Of a stretch of 64,000 nucleotides of DNA, positions 7,947 through 63,532 are shown piece by piece. A model generated the notes under the pieces. It saw nothing but the letters and a program-made list of their open reading frames with translations. It had not been told where the DNA came from and did no database searches. Numbering within the stretch: the first letter of the stretch is position 1; every line of letters starts with the position of its first letter. Both the position numbers and the translations under genes were made by a program. The stretch covers positions 6,944,001 to 7,008,000 of the forward strand of contig OX597842.1 in the NCBI GenBank assembly GCA_951406725.2, in the 5' to 3' direction. This stretch comes from Octopus vulgaris. Lineage: Eukaryota.

Positions 7947-7993
7947 TGACAGTGATCAGGTCGCAGCCTCAAAGCGATGAAAATATTTTGGCA
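7947..7993 (+). ncRNA. Minimal hammerhead-like motif with G3-C8 core variant (Penelope pLTR remnant)
   Basis: tgaca-GTGATCA-g-GTCGC(agcctcaaa)GCGAT-GAAA-ATAT-TT-tggca. Second family copy at 29931-29977(-). Confidence 0.55.
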
Positions 7994-8729
7994 AATTAAA
8001 TTTAAATGTTGACTCTAATGGTTTTTGTGTGTTTTTAAATGGCTTATAAACACCTTCCATGCAGCAATTGTTTTATATATATATAACTTCCTATACATAT
8101 ATTTTGATATACTGCGTTGTCTTTACTACCATATATAGCCATGACAGACAGAAATAATGTAATCAAAGCAAAATTTGAGTTTGCCAAAATGATATTTATA
8201 TGTCACTTGAGGAAACACAGCTAGATTTCATAATACAGTGAAATGGTTACATAACCAAATACCTATGAACCTGGAGAACTACGTTGCGTGGAAACAATTG
8301 TAGTGATTAGAAATAAATGTTCCTCTATTCATTGACTCACTACAGAAGCCCCAATGCAAATCTGGCAAAAGGTATAATACTGCTGTTGAATAGCATTGGG
8401 TGAAATCTGAAGGTGGACAAGCTTTATACTGTACTCTACTATGTTCTTAACAGAATATAACCTAACTATATATATATATATATGGCAAGAAGAAAATGGG
8501 GGGGATAGAGAAATAGTATACATCAACTGTTAGAAATTATATTATGTCTATTTATTTATTTTAAACAATTATGAGAATATATATACATATCGATTACATA
8601 ATAAGTACCAGTAATTCCTAGAATAGAAAAAGAAAACGAACAGTTTCTTACAGCTGTTTCTGCTGTATATATATATATATATATATATACATACATACAT
8701 ACATACACACATATATATATATATATATA

Positions 8730-8968
8730 TGTGCCGGTGGCACGTAAAAAGCACCAACTGATCGTGGCCGCTGCCAACCTCCCCTGGCACGTAAAAAGCA
8801 CCCACTACACTCATGGAGTGGTTGGTGTTAGGAAGGGCATCCAGCTGTAGAAACACTGCCAGTTCAAGACTGGAGCCTGGTGCAGCCTCCTGGCTTCCCA
8901 GAACCCTGTCGAACCGTCCAACCCATGCTAGCACGGAAAACGGACATTAAACGATGATGATGATGATA
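8730..8968 (+). mobile_element. RTE LINE 3'-UTR copy ending in (GAT)n
   Basis: Same sequence as the 3' UTR of the 4494-5725 LINE. Other copies at about 14420-14650(-), 20745-21260(+), 34555-34825(+), 36958-37235(-), 38436-38815(-). Confidence 0.85.
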
Positions 8969-9636
8969 TATATATATATATATATATATATATATATACA
9001 TATATATATGTACATATATATATGTATATATATATATATATATATATATATACATACATATATATATATATATATACATATATATATGTACATATATATA
9101 TGTATATATATATATATATATATATATATATAGATATATATATATATTTTAAAATAGGATAAAATCTTTATAACAATTTATCAAGTGGTGCATTTTGTGC
9201 ACTAATTATGAAATCATATGATCTGCGGCTGTTTATATAATATAATATATCATGTTTATATAATAAGAATAAGTACCAGGCCTAAACAAAATAAGTTCTG
9301 GGGTCAATTCATTTGACTAAAGACTCTTCAAGGCGGTGCCCCAGCATGGCCACGGTCTGTTGACTGAAACAAGTAAAATATAAAAGATTGCCATCACCCA
9401 CCATCATCATTGCAACTGCCATCACTTTCATCTCTCTACACCACCGCCATCACCTCGACTCCCCCGCCCCCAGCCAAATCCCAGTGATCAGTTTCATCTA
9501 ATGTTCTTCTCCACCAATTGCAGGAATAATCTCAGGTGAAGTTTTTCATTTCACTGTATTACATACGTGAGACTCTGCGTGTATATATTTAGTATGTAGA
9601 ACACTTCCCTAAGGTAGTTGCTCTTCGGTCCTATTG

Positions 9637-10178
9637 TGAGTGAGTGAGATGGGGAGGGAATGAGTGAGTGAATGAGGGAGGGAGGGAGGGAGGGAATGAG
9701 TGAGTGAATGAGGGAGGGAGGGAATAAGTGAGTGAGTAAGGGAGGAAGGGAGGGAATGAGTGAGTGAATGAATGAAGGAGGGAGGGAGGGAGGGAGGGGG
9801 ATTGAGTGAGTGAGTAAATGAGTGAGTGAGTGAATGAGTAAATGAGTGAGGGAGTGAATGAATGAGGGACGGAAGGAGGGAGTGAGTGAGTGAGGGAGTG
9901 AAGGAGTGAGTGAGTGAATGAATAAGTGAGGGAGTGAGTGAGTGAATGATGAGTGAGTGAGTGAGTGAATGAATAAGTGAGGGAGTGAGTGAGTGAATGA
10001 TGAGTGAGTGAGTGAATGAATGACTGAGGGAGGGAGGGAGTGAATGAATGAGGGAGGGAGGGAGTGAATGAGTGAGTGAGTGAATGACTGAGGGAGGGAA
10101 TGAGTGAGTTAATGAGTGAGTGAGGGAAGGGAGTGTGTGAATGAATGAGTGAGTGAGCGAAGGAGGGAGGGGAGAATG
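9637..10178. repeat. Purine-rich (GAGT/GAAT/GAGG)n compound microsatellite
   Basis: Seen directly; explains the HSLT-rich pseudo-ORF. Confidence 0.92.
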
Positions 10179-60395: not shown

Positions 60396-60419
60396 TAATT
60401 CTATGTATTTCTGTTTCAG

Positions 60420-60554
60420 ACAACCTGACAATATAACACTCTTCAACAATGTCAACAGTGTCAAGTTATGCCTTGGTGTTTTGTCCAAAATGATGGATTA
60501 CCACAACAGGGATGTATTGGTGGTTACACTGGAGGCTGCAGCCTACATGTTTAA
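60420..60554 (+). CDS. MEI1: Internal coding exon (135 nt) of MEI1-like gene: (R)QPDNITLFNNVNSVKLCLGVLSKMMDYHNRDVLVVTLEAAAYMF(K)
   Basis: Acceptor tatttctgtttcag, donor AA|gtaagt. AG+A completes Arg across the 23.6-kb intron. RQPxxIxLF matches MEI1 'RQPEEIKLF'. Confidence 0.87.
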
Positions 60555-61869
60555 GTAAGTTGGTTTTAGCTACATGTGAAAAAGGATTGGCTGGGGACTG
60601 GCAGTGTTGATAGACCCTGGAAATATATAGATGTTAGGGAGAGTCGATTGGGTGGTGACTGGTGGTATTATGTGTTGGATGGAAGCACTCCGTCGGTTAC
60701 GACGACGAGGGTTCCAGTTGATCCGAATCAATGGAACAGCCTGCTTGTGAAATTAACGTGTAAGTGGCTGAGCACTCCACAGACACGTGTACCCTTAACA
60801 CAGTTCTCGGGGATATTCAGCATGACACAGAGAGTGACAAGGCCGGCCCTTTGAAATACAGGAAGTAAGAGTGAGAGAAAGTTGTGGTGAAAGAGTACAG
60901 CAGGGATCACCACCATCCCCTGCCGGAGCCTCATGGAGCTTTTAGGTATTTTCGCTCAATAAACACTCACAACGCTCGGTCTGGGAATCGAAACCGCGAT
61001 CCTATGACCGCGAGTCCGCTTCCTTAACCACTGGGCCATTGCGCCTCCACTTATTATGCGTTGATATACCTTTTAAACATATATCTATATATGAGGGTGA
61101 TTAGACAGTTTGGTTGGAGTATTTGTGTTCATGTCTTCTCACTGTCATCATCATTTTACGTTCACTTTCCATGCTGGCATGGGTTACACAGTTTGACTGG
61201 AGTTGGTAAGCTGGTGAGCTCCATCAGGCTCCAGTTGTCCTTATTGGCAGAGCTTCTACCGCTTGATGCCCTTCCTAATGCCAACTACTTTACTGAATCT
61301 ACTGGGTGTTTTTTATGTGGCATGGGTACTTTTTTGTATGGGTACTTTTTATGTGGAACCAGCTCAAGTGCATTTCATGTGCCACCAGCTCAAGTGCTCT
61401 TTATGTGATACTAGCATGGTACCTATTTCTTTATTACCCACAAGGGGCTAAACACAGAGGGGACAAACAAGGACAGACACAGGTATTAAGTCGATTGCAT
61501 CGACCCCAGTGCATAACTGGCACTTAATTTATCGACCCCGAAAGGATGAAAGGCAAAGTCGACCTCGGCGGAATTTGAACTCAGAACGTAACGACAGACG
61601 AAATACCGCTAAGCATTTCGCCCGGCGTGCTAACGACTCTGCCAGCTCACCGCCTTAGTATCATCAAGTGCACTCTTTACATGGTACCAGCATGAGTGCT
61701 TTTCATGTGGCACCAAGATGTGTGCCAACAGTGCTTCTTATATTGATGCTGAGTGGAGGAATCCTAGAAGATCAATGGTCAGGATCACCAAGCTCTATCA
61801 AGAGAGCAACTGCCATGCATCCTTAGGGGCAGCATCCATGGTTGTGTAATCAGTTAATGAATGATACAC

Positions 61870-61947
61870 TATGTCTCAAGCCTGTGGATTCTGTTCCCAT
61901 GGTCTCTGAGGGAGCCATGGGGACAGAGTCCTCAGGCTTGGGTCATA
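61870..61947 (+). other. About 78-nt imperfect hairpin, pre-miRNA-like
   Basis: tatgtctcaagcctgtggattctgttcccatggtctc...gagccatggggacagagtcctcaggcttgggtcata, with three G-U wobbles on +. Confidence 0.4.
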
Positions 61948-63532
61948 TCTGATGTATGATATACTAAATAGTATTAGTGGTTACAGTTGTCTGTTGCTGT
62001 TTAGCCCTTGGTCAGTCCTGATCCAGCAGACCTATGATGAAAAATGTCCCAGCTGTGATTGTTCTCTCTTTATTCGGATATACTGGAACATCATCGGTTA
62101 CATGGATGAGCACTCCAGATGATCCAGTCAACAGAACAGCTTGTTCATGAGATTGACATGCAAGTGGCTGAGTTTTCTAGACGTACATACCCTTAACACA
62201 GTTCTTGGGGAAATTCAGTGTAATACAGAATGGGACAAGGCTGACCCTTTCAATTACAGGTACCAAATTCATTCGCCTTTCATGTGACACCAGAAAGAGT
62301 GCTCTTTATGTGACACCAACACGAGTGCTTTTCATGTGACAGTGGCATGGGTGCTTTTCACATGGCACTGGAATACCTTTTCTACATAATATTGGCATGG
62401 GTGCTTTTTATATAACACCATCTTGGGTTTGTTTGACATGGTGCTATCATGGGTACTTTTACCATGAGACTAGCACAGGTACTTTCTATGTAACACCAGC
62501 AAGGGTGCTTTTTGCATGACTCTGGCACCTGTAAATATATATGGATATGTGAGGGTGGACTGACTGCGGACTGATATTCTGTGTAGTTACACAAAGGTTC
62601 TCGACATTCTGTGACATTTTTTTGCTTATCTGCTATGCATAGCATAGTAGGTAAAGCTGATGGTTAATGTGGTGCAGTCACCTAGAGGTTCTGAGTTCAA
62701 ATCCAAGCTAGGTACCAAAAAAAATCAACTGAAGTAAAAAATATCATGGAACACAGAGAGTGAAGTGAAAACAGTGTACCCCTGTAGATCAAAAAAGAGT
62801 TAGCTTCAGAATTCCAATAGAGCAACTGAGTTCAACACAAGATACCTGAAGGGGACTGGAGCATACAACAGCCGACACATAGTGAAAGCCACAATCAAGA
62901 TAAGGAGACCAGCCTGACTAATATAAAATGCGTACGTAATTTCGCTTTTACTCTTTTACTTGTTTCAGTCATTTGACTGTGGCCATGCTGGAGCACTGCC
63001 TTTAGTTGAGCAAATCGACCCCAGGACTTATTCTTTGTAAGCCTAGTACTTATTCTATCAGTCTCTTTTGCCGAACCGCTAAGTTACGGGGACGTAAACA
63101 CACCAGCATCGGTTGTCAAGCGATGTTGGAGGGACAAACACAAACACACACATATATATATACATATACATATATACCACGGGCTTCTTTCAGTTTCCAT
63201 CTACCAATTCAACTCACAAGGCTTTGGTCGGCCCGAGGCTATAGTAGAAGACACTTGCCCAAGGTGCCACACAGTGGGACTGAACCCAGAACCATGTGGT
63301 TGATAAGCAAGCTACTTTATTTCATATAATTTGCCACAAGGGCATTACACAGAGTAAGAAGCTTGTGGGCTGGACATAGACAAAATGAGATGAAATGAAA
63401 ACATAATGATAAAGGTGAGAGGGATGTCGGCACCCACCAACCACGGTAAGCAAGCTACTTACCACACATCCACTCCTGCACCTATCTGTAAATGTTTATT
63501 AATATGTACCCCCTTTCTATATTACAAACCAG

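Follow-up and report, generated by a model that had tools for sequence, protein, structure and literature searches.

Hammerhead-bearing repeats, probably ends of Penelope-like elements and some with variant cores, in the introns of an octopus MEI1-like gene

The window, by which we mean the whole 64,000-nucleotide stretch of Octopus vulgaris DNA that was analyzed, contains exons of a MEI1-like gene on the + strand and a series of repeat copies that carry hammerhead ribozyme motifs. Because this gene has exons within the window and further upstream exons more than 31 kb before it, all of the motifs are intronic, as originally predicted, and + is the sense orientation. A short-word tblastn search within the window for the MEI1 N terminus returned noise only. 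The features are as follows, with motifs named by position.

25621..63722, +: MEI1-like host gene, exons 25621-25674, 29572-29649, 36710-36811, 60418-60555 and 63531-63722
7873..8071, +: family A insertion between TA runs; an inverted tail piece, then a + arm with a G3:C8 core at 7952 (motif 7947)
11867..12196, both strands: family B divergent fold-back; - core 11963 and + core 12103, both mutated
16675..17092, -: family C insertion (motif 16825); core 16924 with G17, right inverted arm comprising the 3′ end only
18845..18935, -: family D copy (motif 18876), antisense to MEI1; core damaged by G5C
19740..20065, both strands: family E divergent fold-back; descriptor passed by the - arm (core 19831), G12A in the + (sense) arm (core 19974, motif 19969)
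20561..20639, +: family D solo sense copy (motif 20579), intact for its family, A6U core at 20583
29841..29993, -: family A copy (motif 29931); G3:C8 core at 29972, G12A
38194..38380, +: family F insertion (motif 38270); core 38275 canonical apart from G10.1C, left inverted arm comprising the 3′ part only
39043..40374, both strands: family G divergent insertion, very young; - arm 39043-39754 with a one-sided tail, + arm 39755-40374; derived from the pLTR of a PLE with RT and GIY-YIG
53612..54890, +: 5′-truncated Penelope-like element (PLE) of family H (motif 54663); GIY-YIG-like ORF end 53612-54124, 3′ UTR and solo sense hammerhead with A9C core 54669
59524..59730, both strands: family I divergent fold-back, old; - arm (59557) with G12A and U16.1C, + arm (59636) with G8A
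62836..62901, +: decayed family E-like copy (motif 62843), recognized by its profile match

The original prediction placed type-I hammerhead layouts from several unrelated families at 16 positions. When scored against profiles built from genome copies, all 16 match one of nine repeat families, A to I (E values from 3e-5 to 3e-49), which confirms the layouts as real. Since Rfam shows no hammerhead in the window among the 150 matches listed of 212, the identification depends on these family alignments and on structural descriptors. One descriptor gives 23 matches in 766 kb of gene spans versus none in the reversed control, and a narrower version gives 69 distinct matches in 1.67 Mb of loci versus none in its control. 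A genome-wide scan with Hammerhead_1 yielded six matches among 73 candidates scored. A descriptor that allowed neither internal loops nor an additional nucleotide after A9 found nothing for that reason.

At the family level, stems I and II, GAAA, UH and a palindromic stem III are present (the palindrome is missing in H), and these support the predicted minimal, dimer-type architecture. The canonical core CUGANGA occurs in families B, C, E, F, G and I, but not in A (G3:C8), D (A6U) or H (A9C). The copies in the window are mostly damaged, as judged by reading core mutations by eye against the family alignments. Only four of the 16 pass the descriptor used for the 766-kb scan, namely 19791 (-), 20579 (+, with its A6U core), 39416 (-) and 40070 (+). 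Motif 7947 has lost the 5′ strand of stem I. The family B consensus has a canonical core, a long stem II and a palindromic stem III, but its window copies carry G8C and U16.1C at 11872 and C3G and G8A at 12100. The family G fold-back, in contrast, presents identical, intact canonical hammerheads on its two arms (cores 39524 on - and 40074 on +), and motif 54663 (+) agrees with family H in its A9C core and nonpalindromic stem III.

The statement that most motifs sit in (TA)n tracts holds in part. Enrichment over the window background is not supported for the motifs themselves, with four of 16 having a (TA)5+ run no more than 150 nt away versus 34% of random window positions, whereas in families A, G and H it is the ends of the elements that border TA runs.

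The proposed PLE origin is supported by the location of families A, F, G and H behind GIY-YIG ORFs. In family A, the motif follows the endonuclease ORF by 918 to 1,231 nt in 18 of 20 loci, and at one locus there is a 1,025-codon open frame with reverse transcriptase (RT) motifs and a Pfam GIY-YIG match above cut-off. Family G precedes RT and GIY-YIG frames at one locus, where Pfam is silent and the motif was read by eye. An ORF end lies upstream in 6 of 15 family H loci, including the window copy, and in 1 of 20 loci for family F. Motif 54663 indeed resides in the 3′ UTR of a GIY-YIG Penelope copy, although its ORF piece (53612-54124) was not scored by Pfam. For families B, C, D, E and I, the 1.5 kb upstream contains nothing clearly recognizable as GIY-YIG at sampled loci, apart from one weak match for B (E 3e-5). 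The homologues obtained are unnamed or hypothetical entries.

Comparisons with published systems refer to the portions of each source covered here. A Cys-rich, zinc-finger-like linker precedes GIY-YIG in family A (CxxxCxxC) and family G (CxC...C), and this C-terminal arrangement resembles that of the EN+ PLEs Neptune and Nematis (PMC8557442), a likeness drawn by eye from the linker. EN+ PLE insertions also share with our loci an inverted, 5′-truncated, head-to-head copy, a tail at one end and (TA)n targets (Craig et al. 2021, PMC8557442; Arkhipova et al. 2013, PMC3846280). Their tails are described as 30 to 40 bp, whereas those in the window are longer (about 180 nt for G and about 50 nt for A). 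The closest known type-I hammerhead repeats have in common with the octopus families the type-I layout, an extra nucleotide after A9, G10.1-C11.1, a tiny palindromic stem III, solo copies in the thousands, paired copies 100 to 700 bp apart on opposite strands and a U3-A8 variant. The octopus differs in having whole families with G3:C8, A6U or A9C cores, and stem II regions of about 65 to 85 nt in B, C and G. The one supplement file searched for these repeats holds no octopus entry.

In all four fold-backs with a ribozyme in both arms, the left arm is on the - strand and the right arm on the + strand, as had been noted, and it follows that a transcript of either strand makes the antisense arm first. 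Inverted partner arms lacking a ribozyme also occur at 16825 and 38270, and an inverted tail piece at 7947. This geometry is not peculiar to the window. Neighboring pairs in sampled loci, which were chosen around the best matches and carry no gene annotation, comprise 66 divergent, 8 direct and 1 convergent. Inverted pairs within 4 kb are divergent in 18 of 18 cases for family A and 21 of 21 for family H (first 100 matches listed of 3,469 and 3,824, respectively). Family D breaks the rule, with three convergent, three direct and no divergent neighbors within 4 kb among the first 100 matches listed. Families A and G have a one-sided 3′ tail with two 3′ ends and are flanked by TA.

These features are those of PLE insertion, for which an inverted 5′-truncated copy, a one-sided tail and a (TA)n bias are documented (PMC8557442), for which head-to-head is the most frequent arrangement (PMC3846280), and in which both strands are cut and extended from two RT starts with unprocessed RNA as the main substrate (PMC11167929). 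We conclude, with a probability of roughly 0.8, that the motifs belong to the 3′ termini, hammerhead included, of several PLE families residing in MEI1 introns, and that the insertion process, not any protection of the host transcript, likely accounts for their back-to-back layout. The GIY-YIG/RT protein of the element would cut both DNA strands, cDNA would be primed from both ends at two neighboring start sites in the tail of uncut RNA, and the two 5′-truncated cDNAs would then be joined 5′ to 5′. The fold-backs represent a known PLE insertion pattern, and a new regulatory story is unnecessary.

More noteworthy are the natural families in which G3:C8, A6U or A9C cores are fixed. The C3:G8 pair of the hammerhead positions the catalytic G8 ribose. 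Family A (motifs 7947 and 29931) carries G3:C8 in its place, and this motif has 6,746 exact 17-mer matches genome-wide versus one for the control. The sequence of the family's short copies is the same as that at the 3′ terminus of the element that bears the ORF. Judged from its sequence, family A is a young autonomous PLE with G3:C8 fixed. Four metagenome matches to the G3:C8 motif are GC-rich, probably coding and without a stem I, and were treated as chance. Lunse et al. reportedly described about 150,000 PLE hammerhead variants in 2017. Family D, with 17,348 pattern matches, has A6U in 95 of the first 100 listed, and family H, with 3,824 matches, has A9C in 89 of the first 100 listed. Standard CUGANGA descriptors miss all three cores, so cephalopod hammerhead counts are likely low by tens of thousands.

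In the Anolis Poseidon element PAc (Frangieh et al. 2024, PMC11167929), which shares with the octopus families two RT start sites bounding the tail and cDNA made from uncut RNA, C3G/G8C is a partly active laboratory double mutant. In the literature covered, the full C3:G8 swap is a laboratory rescue mutant, whereas in octopus it occurs naturally and is the fixed state of an element that was recently active and has thousands of copies. Natural core variants (Perreault et al. 2011, PMC3088659) include covariation of positions 3 and 8 (U3-A8) and a slow A6 variant (A6C), but the section covered contains no G3-C8, A6U or A9C. No natural G3:C8 was found in the literature covered, although one may be described outside it.

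Fixation of core changes in very successful families suggests that cleavage is weak or partly dispensable for spread. The 5′ ends of family A bear on this point. Of 98 copies, 82 span the predicted cut site, so integrated cDNA came mostly from uncut RNA, and 5′ ends do not cluster at that site among these copies. The two that do start there resemble a stem-I template switch and an internal deletion. Spread with weakened cores, together with cDNAs that read through the cut site, bears on whether PLEs need ribozyme cleavage at all.

The variant cores could be dead relics carried along by successful master elements, with catalysis playing no role. This reading is quite plausible, though the odds are somewhat against it. 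Neither A6U nor A9C is compensated, although each predominates in its family, 5′ ends do not accumulate at the cut site, and catalytic mutants insert unimpaired in vitro (PMC11167929). However, G3:C8 requires two compensating transversions and the pair has been preserved. Of 69 structure-passing descriptor matches, in a sample weighted toward family A, 67 carry C3:G8, U3:A8 or G3:C8. The stems and GAAA persist from one subfamily to another despite variation in loop II and N7, and the laboratory C3G/G8C change partly restores cleavage (PMC11167929, PMC8495972). We tentatively offer, as a possibility that may well prove wrong, that the natural G3:C8 hammerhead still cleaves as a dimer and that it forms, with the A6U and A9C families, a series of down-tuned ribozymes selected to leave most template RNA uncut for reverse transcription. 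If so, a dimer-cleaving G3:C8 would make the purpose of PLE hammerheads directly testable.

The suggestion of undescribed non-autonomous retroelements is wrong for families A, F, G and H, which are the ends of ORF-bearing PLEs. It retains some ground for B, C, D, E and I, for which no ORF is clearly linked over a distance of 1.5 kb at sampled loci, and of these D is the strongest candidate for true non-autonomy. We regard it as unlikely that the short copies are self-propagating ribozyme elements with their own RNA, whether mini-PLEs or retrozyme-like, rather than one-off cDNA stubs. In its favor, 41 of 98 family A copies start in a narrow zone 19 to 28 nt before the core and the family has two discrete 3′ ends; family D, moreover, has its 17,348 matches with no ORF link and no divergent pairing (first 100 listed). 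However, the identity of family A short copies to the end of an ORF-bearing element speaks against independence, and a fixed 5′ start is also expected if RT begins internally at the tail and continues as far as the RNA's 5′ end (PMC11167929). Non-LTR retrozymes (Cervera and de la Pena 2020, PMC7229834; bioRxiv 2026.07.22.740005) are likewise noncoding, hammerhead-bearing, pLTR-related repeats, but they form head-to-tail tandem units that give circles, whereas the window copies are solo or divergent pairs. No head-to-tail arrays were seen among sampled loci, where direct pairs number 8 versus 66 divergent, and the tandems inspected (L348 and L349) take in TA and unique DNA from their flanks. 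A spliced 5′ exon on family A short copies was also considered and rejected, as the candidate upstream 16-mer has eight matches genome-wide and precedes the element in one inspected locus only.

The original prediction also proposed an explanation for the persistence of fold-backs in introns, in which the antisense arm, being made first, would trap an active ribozyme in dsRNA, from which editing or unwinding might free it. The geometry is valid for both strands, the pair at 39.2 to 40.4 kb folds into one hairpin of ~530 bp (-873.5 kcal/mol) covering the intact sense hammerhead, an upstream antisense arm accompanies four of five intact canonical sense copies in the gene sample, and a preprint describes retrozymes as under-represented in Xenopus introns (10.64898/2026.07.22.740005). 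We nevertheless consider this model very improbable. Divergent geometry is the default PLE insertion product genome-wide, so it does not support sequestration as the reason for tolerance. In addition, the sense arm is mutated in three of the four window fold-backs, only 40070 physically fits the idea, and four of five intact canonical antisense copies in the gene sample are likewise paired. Solo sense copies survive in introns, among them 20579, 54663 and, within a myosin gene, one that is both intact and canonical. The anticipated depletion of solo sense copies did not appear in a small sample (21 sense to 16 antisense, p=0.51). Descriptor-intact solo copies number 4 sense to 9 antisense (p about 0.27 by hand), or 4 to 3 without an uncertain 150-kb myosin span; given the small test and the 4:9 ratio, active sense copies may be mildly purged. 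By inference, the effect of A-to-I editing in the A-rich core would be to inactivate the hammerhead rather than release it.

Under the PLE by-product reading, tolerance of the intronic copies would follow from the antisense orientation or mutated state of most of them and from the very poor cutting by dimer-type hammerheads that stand alone. When a transcript contains just one minimal hammerhead in sense orientation, there is no dimer partner in cis, and such monomers are reported not to cleave (PMC4209133). Structure prediction agrees for family G, in which the core of the monomer is mispaired with loop III in the minimum free energy fold, whereas the dimer is predicted to form an intermolecular stem III (-99.1 versus 2 × -46.0 kcal/mol).

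The original prediction named 16 hammerhead positions in the window. A strict hammerhead scan of the window gave no matches, and no hammerhead was found among the 150 Rfam matches listed of 212. The loci were read and the genome was then searched with each, which yielded nine repeat families (A to I), and family profiles built from 15 to 30 copies apiece recovered all 16 positions. When an extra base was permitted after core position A9, a descriptor found 23 matches across gene spans totalling 766 kb, against none when the sequence was reversed. Thus, the layouts are not due to chance and their presence at the named loci is confirmed. 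Most window copies are damaged; those that pass the descriptor, or match their family state, are as follows.

19791, minus strand: passes the descriptor
20579, plus strand: passes the descriptor
39416, minus strand: passes the descriptor
40070, plus strand: passes the descriptor
54663, plus strand: identical to the state of its family (H)

The claim that most motifs sit in (TA)n tracts held only in part, as 4 of the 16 lie within 150 nt of TA runs versus 34% of random window positions, which is no excess over background. TA runs do adjoin the element ends of families A, G and H. A further minimal layout carrying G12A, beyond the range originally predicted, occurs at 797 (minus), about 300 nt behind the end of a GIY-YIG open reading frame (ORF; 1103-1708, minus; Pfam E 0.005). 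At 61880-61935 (minus), a near-perfect short hairpin follows a CUGAGGA motif and was ruled out as a hammerhead for want of a GAAA box.

These repeats are the 3′ ends (pseudo-LTRs, pLTRs) of Penelope-like elements (PLEs), an origin that had been predicted correctly and was already known, and ORF links were found for families A, F, G and H. In 18 of 20 loci, a GIY-YIG ORF is found about 1 kb upstream of family A; at one family-A locus (L371), an open frame of 1,025 codons contains reverse transcriptase (RT) motifs and a Pfam GIY-YIG match above cut-off. An ORF end lies upstream in 6 of 15 loci for family H and in 1 of 20 for family F; families B, C, D, E and I gave no clear ORF link within 1.5 kb in the sampled loci. 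Family G is very young: a 201-nt query gave 40 scored matches, all listed at 100% identity. At locus L092 a copy precedes RT and GIY-YIG frames. Judged from sequence, the Cys linker suggests affiliation with Neptune or Nematis. Between its RT and endonuclease parts, the family-G ORF (L092 3250-4696; L094) also carries a long insert rich in asparagine, which resembles N-rich inserts known from rotifer PLEs (PMC3846280). After this element comes a long LINE-like element with ORF1, endonuclease and RT frames (L092 6440-9827 and L093 3-1899), with a direct pLTR copy on either side, the two lying 11 kb apart.

The apparent novelty lies in core variants that are fixed within families, most notably a G3:C8 pair in a young autonomous PLE. 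Family A carries G3 and C8 in place of the C3 and G8 of the canonical core (CUGANGA). Its exact 17-mer has 6,746 matches (control, 1), and the pattern comprising core, stem II and GAAA has 6,506 (control, 0), with 279 non-G3 versions. C3:G8 occurs in 7 of the first 100 of these listed, and the two inspected proved to be members of a related canonical family. Subfamilies with differing loop II all keep stem I (7 bp), stem II (5 bp) and a palindromic stem III. Across contigs from four runs, which bear four organism labels, no other letter reaches 5% at positions 3 and 8; the alignment was made at 82% identity or more, a threshold that favours family members. In family D, 95 of the first 100 listed matches (17,348 in total) have U6, and N7 varies; in family H, 89 of the first 100 (3,824 in total) have C9.

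U3:A8 hammerhead families are present too. Sampled myosin spans (L300-L307, L317-L318) and L035 between them yielded these families, one as a divergent pair, as well as a copy of a second, more distant G3:C8 family, with L346 as a further locus. Natural U3-A8 and A6C variants are reported in Perreault 2011 (PMC3088659) and Cervera 2014, and C3G/G8C is described as a partly active laboratory mutant (PMC11167929, PMC8495972, PMC3884650). Natural G3-C8, A6U or A9C was not found in the literature searched, a coverage without Lunse 2017 and some supplements. An octopus repeat annotation names active Penelope families, with ribozymes unmentioned in its accessible text (PMC13282606).

Neighbouring copies of the same family are mostly divergent, minus arm first: 66 pairs have this layout, 8 are direct and 1 is convergent at loci chosen around best matches. 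All 18 inverted family-A pairs within 4 kb are divergent (first 100 listed of 3,469 matches), as are all 21 of family H (first 100 listed of 3,824). Family D departs from this pattern: its neighbours (first 100 listed of 17,348) comprise 3 convergent and 3 direct cases and none that is divergent. The family-G insertion in the window joins a 712-nt minus arm, which bears a one-sided tail, 5′ to 5′ with a 620-nt plus arm. Published PLE insertions likewise have an inverted 5′-truncated copy beside the 5′ end, carry a tail on one side only and target TA sequence (PMC8557442), and head-to-head is the commonest arrangement reported (PMC3846280). Purified PLE protein is described as cleaving both strands and extending them, with RT starting at two neighbouring sites (PMC11167929), which would provide a direct mechanism for the divergent geometry. 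Self-priming on an antisense template has been proposed as an alternative origin (PMC3846280). Under either insertion mechanism, the geometry needs no host selection.

The 5′ ends of 98 family-A copies, anchored by the 3′ pattern, were mapped from the listed part of 3,469 matches on a single contig (C1). Of these, 41 begin 19 to 28 nt before the core and 11 reach further; another 30 start between this zone and the cut site, 2 coincide with the site and 14 begin downstream of it. Thus, 82 of the 98 cDNAs span the predicted cut, and the mapping gave no hint of cleavage. This read-through agrees with in vitro work in which uncut RNA served as the substrate (PMC11167929), and it is no proof of a dead ribozyme because cut RNA may simply not integrate. 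We infer that the fixed 5′ start may mark where transcription begins, and short copies could then act as mini-elements. In long copies (L344, L371 and others), the sequence directly before the 5′ pile-up point contains a motif resembling a branch point, a pyrimidine run and YAG. By these motifs the point could serve as a splice acceptor or as an initiator; a search for an upstream exon common to the copies found none.

An exon peptide in the window matches an octopus protein named meiosis inhibitor protein 1-like at 95%. When this protein was mapped, five plus-strand exons of the MEI1-like gene fell inside the window. The exons upstream lie over 31 kb ahead of the window, and the final one is at approximately 7,057,100. 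By this exon map, all hammerhead motifs are intronic and plus is sense. It had been proposed that the antisense arm of a fold-back locks the ribozyme and so protects the MEI1 pre-mRNA, a reading we consider very improbable. The predicted hairpin of the 40070 fold-back is physically overwhelming (−873.5 kcal/mol). However, the family-G monomer is predicted to mispair its core, with the hammerhead fold appearing in the dimer, and a divergent pair gives just one sense copy per transcript; a single minimal hammerhead is reported not to cleave (PMC4209133). The sense arms of three fold-backs are moreover mutated (B, C3G plus G8A; E, G12A; I, G8A).

Solo copies taken together showed no sense-strand depletion in our intron sample (the 766 kb of MEI1 and 15 myosin-head spans). 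Solo copies number 21 sense versus 16 antisense (p=0.51), or 21:9 without one 150-kb span that is maybe not a single gene. Intact solo copies are few, at 4 sense versus 9 antisense (4:3 without that span), and mild purging of intact sense copies may be compatible with these small counts. Intact canonical copies are equally paired on both strands (4 of 5 sense, 4 of 5 antisense). Editing of A to I in the A-rich core would, by inference, inactivate the ribozyme instead of releasing it. Neither the protective nor the editing-gated part of the proposal is supported.

Other features of the host gene and its introns were also noted.

G000:C29:6912340-6969621 (assembly and contig coordinates): 57-kb intron of the MEI1-like gene, taking in the first 25.6 kb of the window (6944001-7008000 on this contig)
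17906-18024, minus strand: full-length 5S rRNA-like sequence in a MEI1 intron (Rfam, 99.3 bits), a pseudogene or the head of a 5S-derived repeat
27320-27834, 47152-47935 and 58373-59252: further long inverted repeats (arms 190-200 nt, 82-92%), potential dsRNA matching none of the nine hammerhead families
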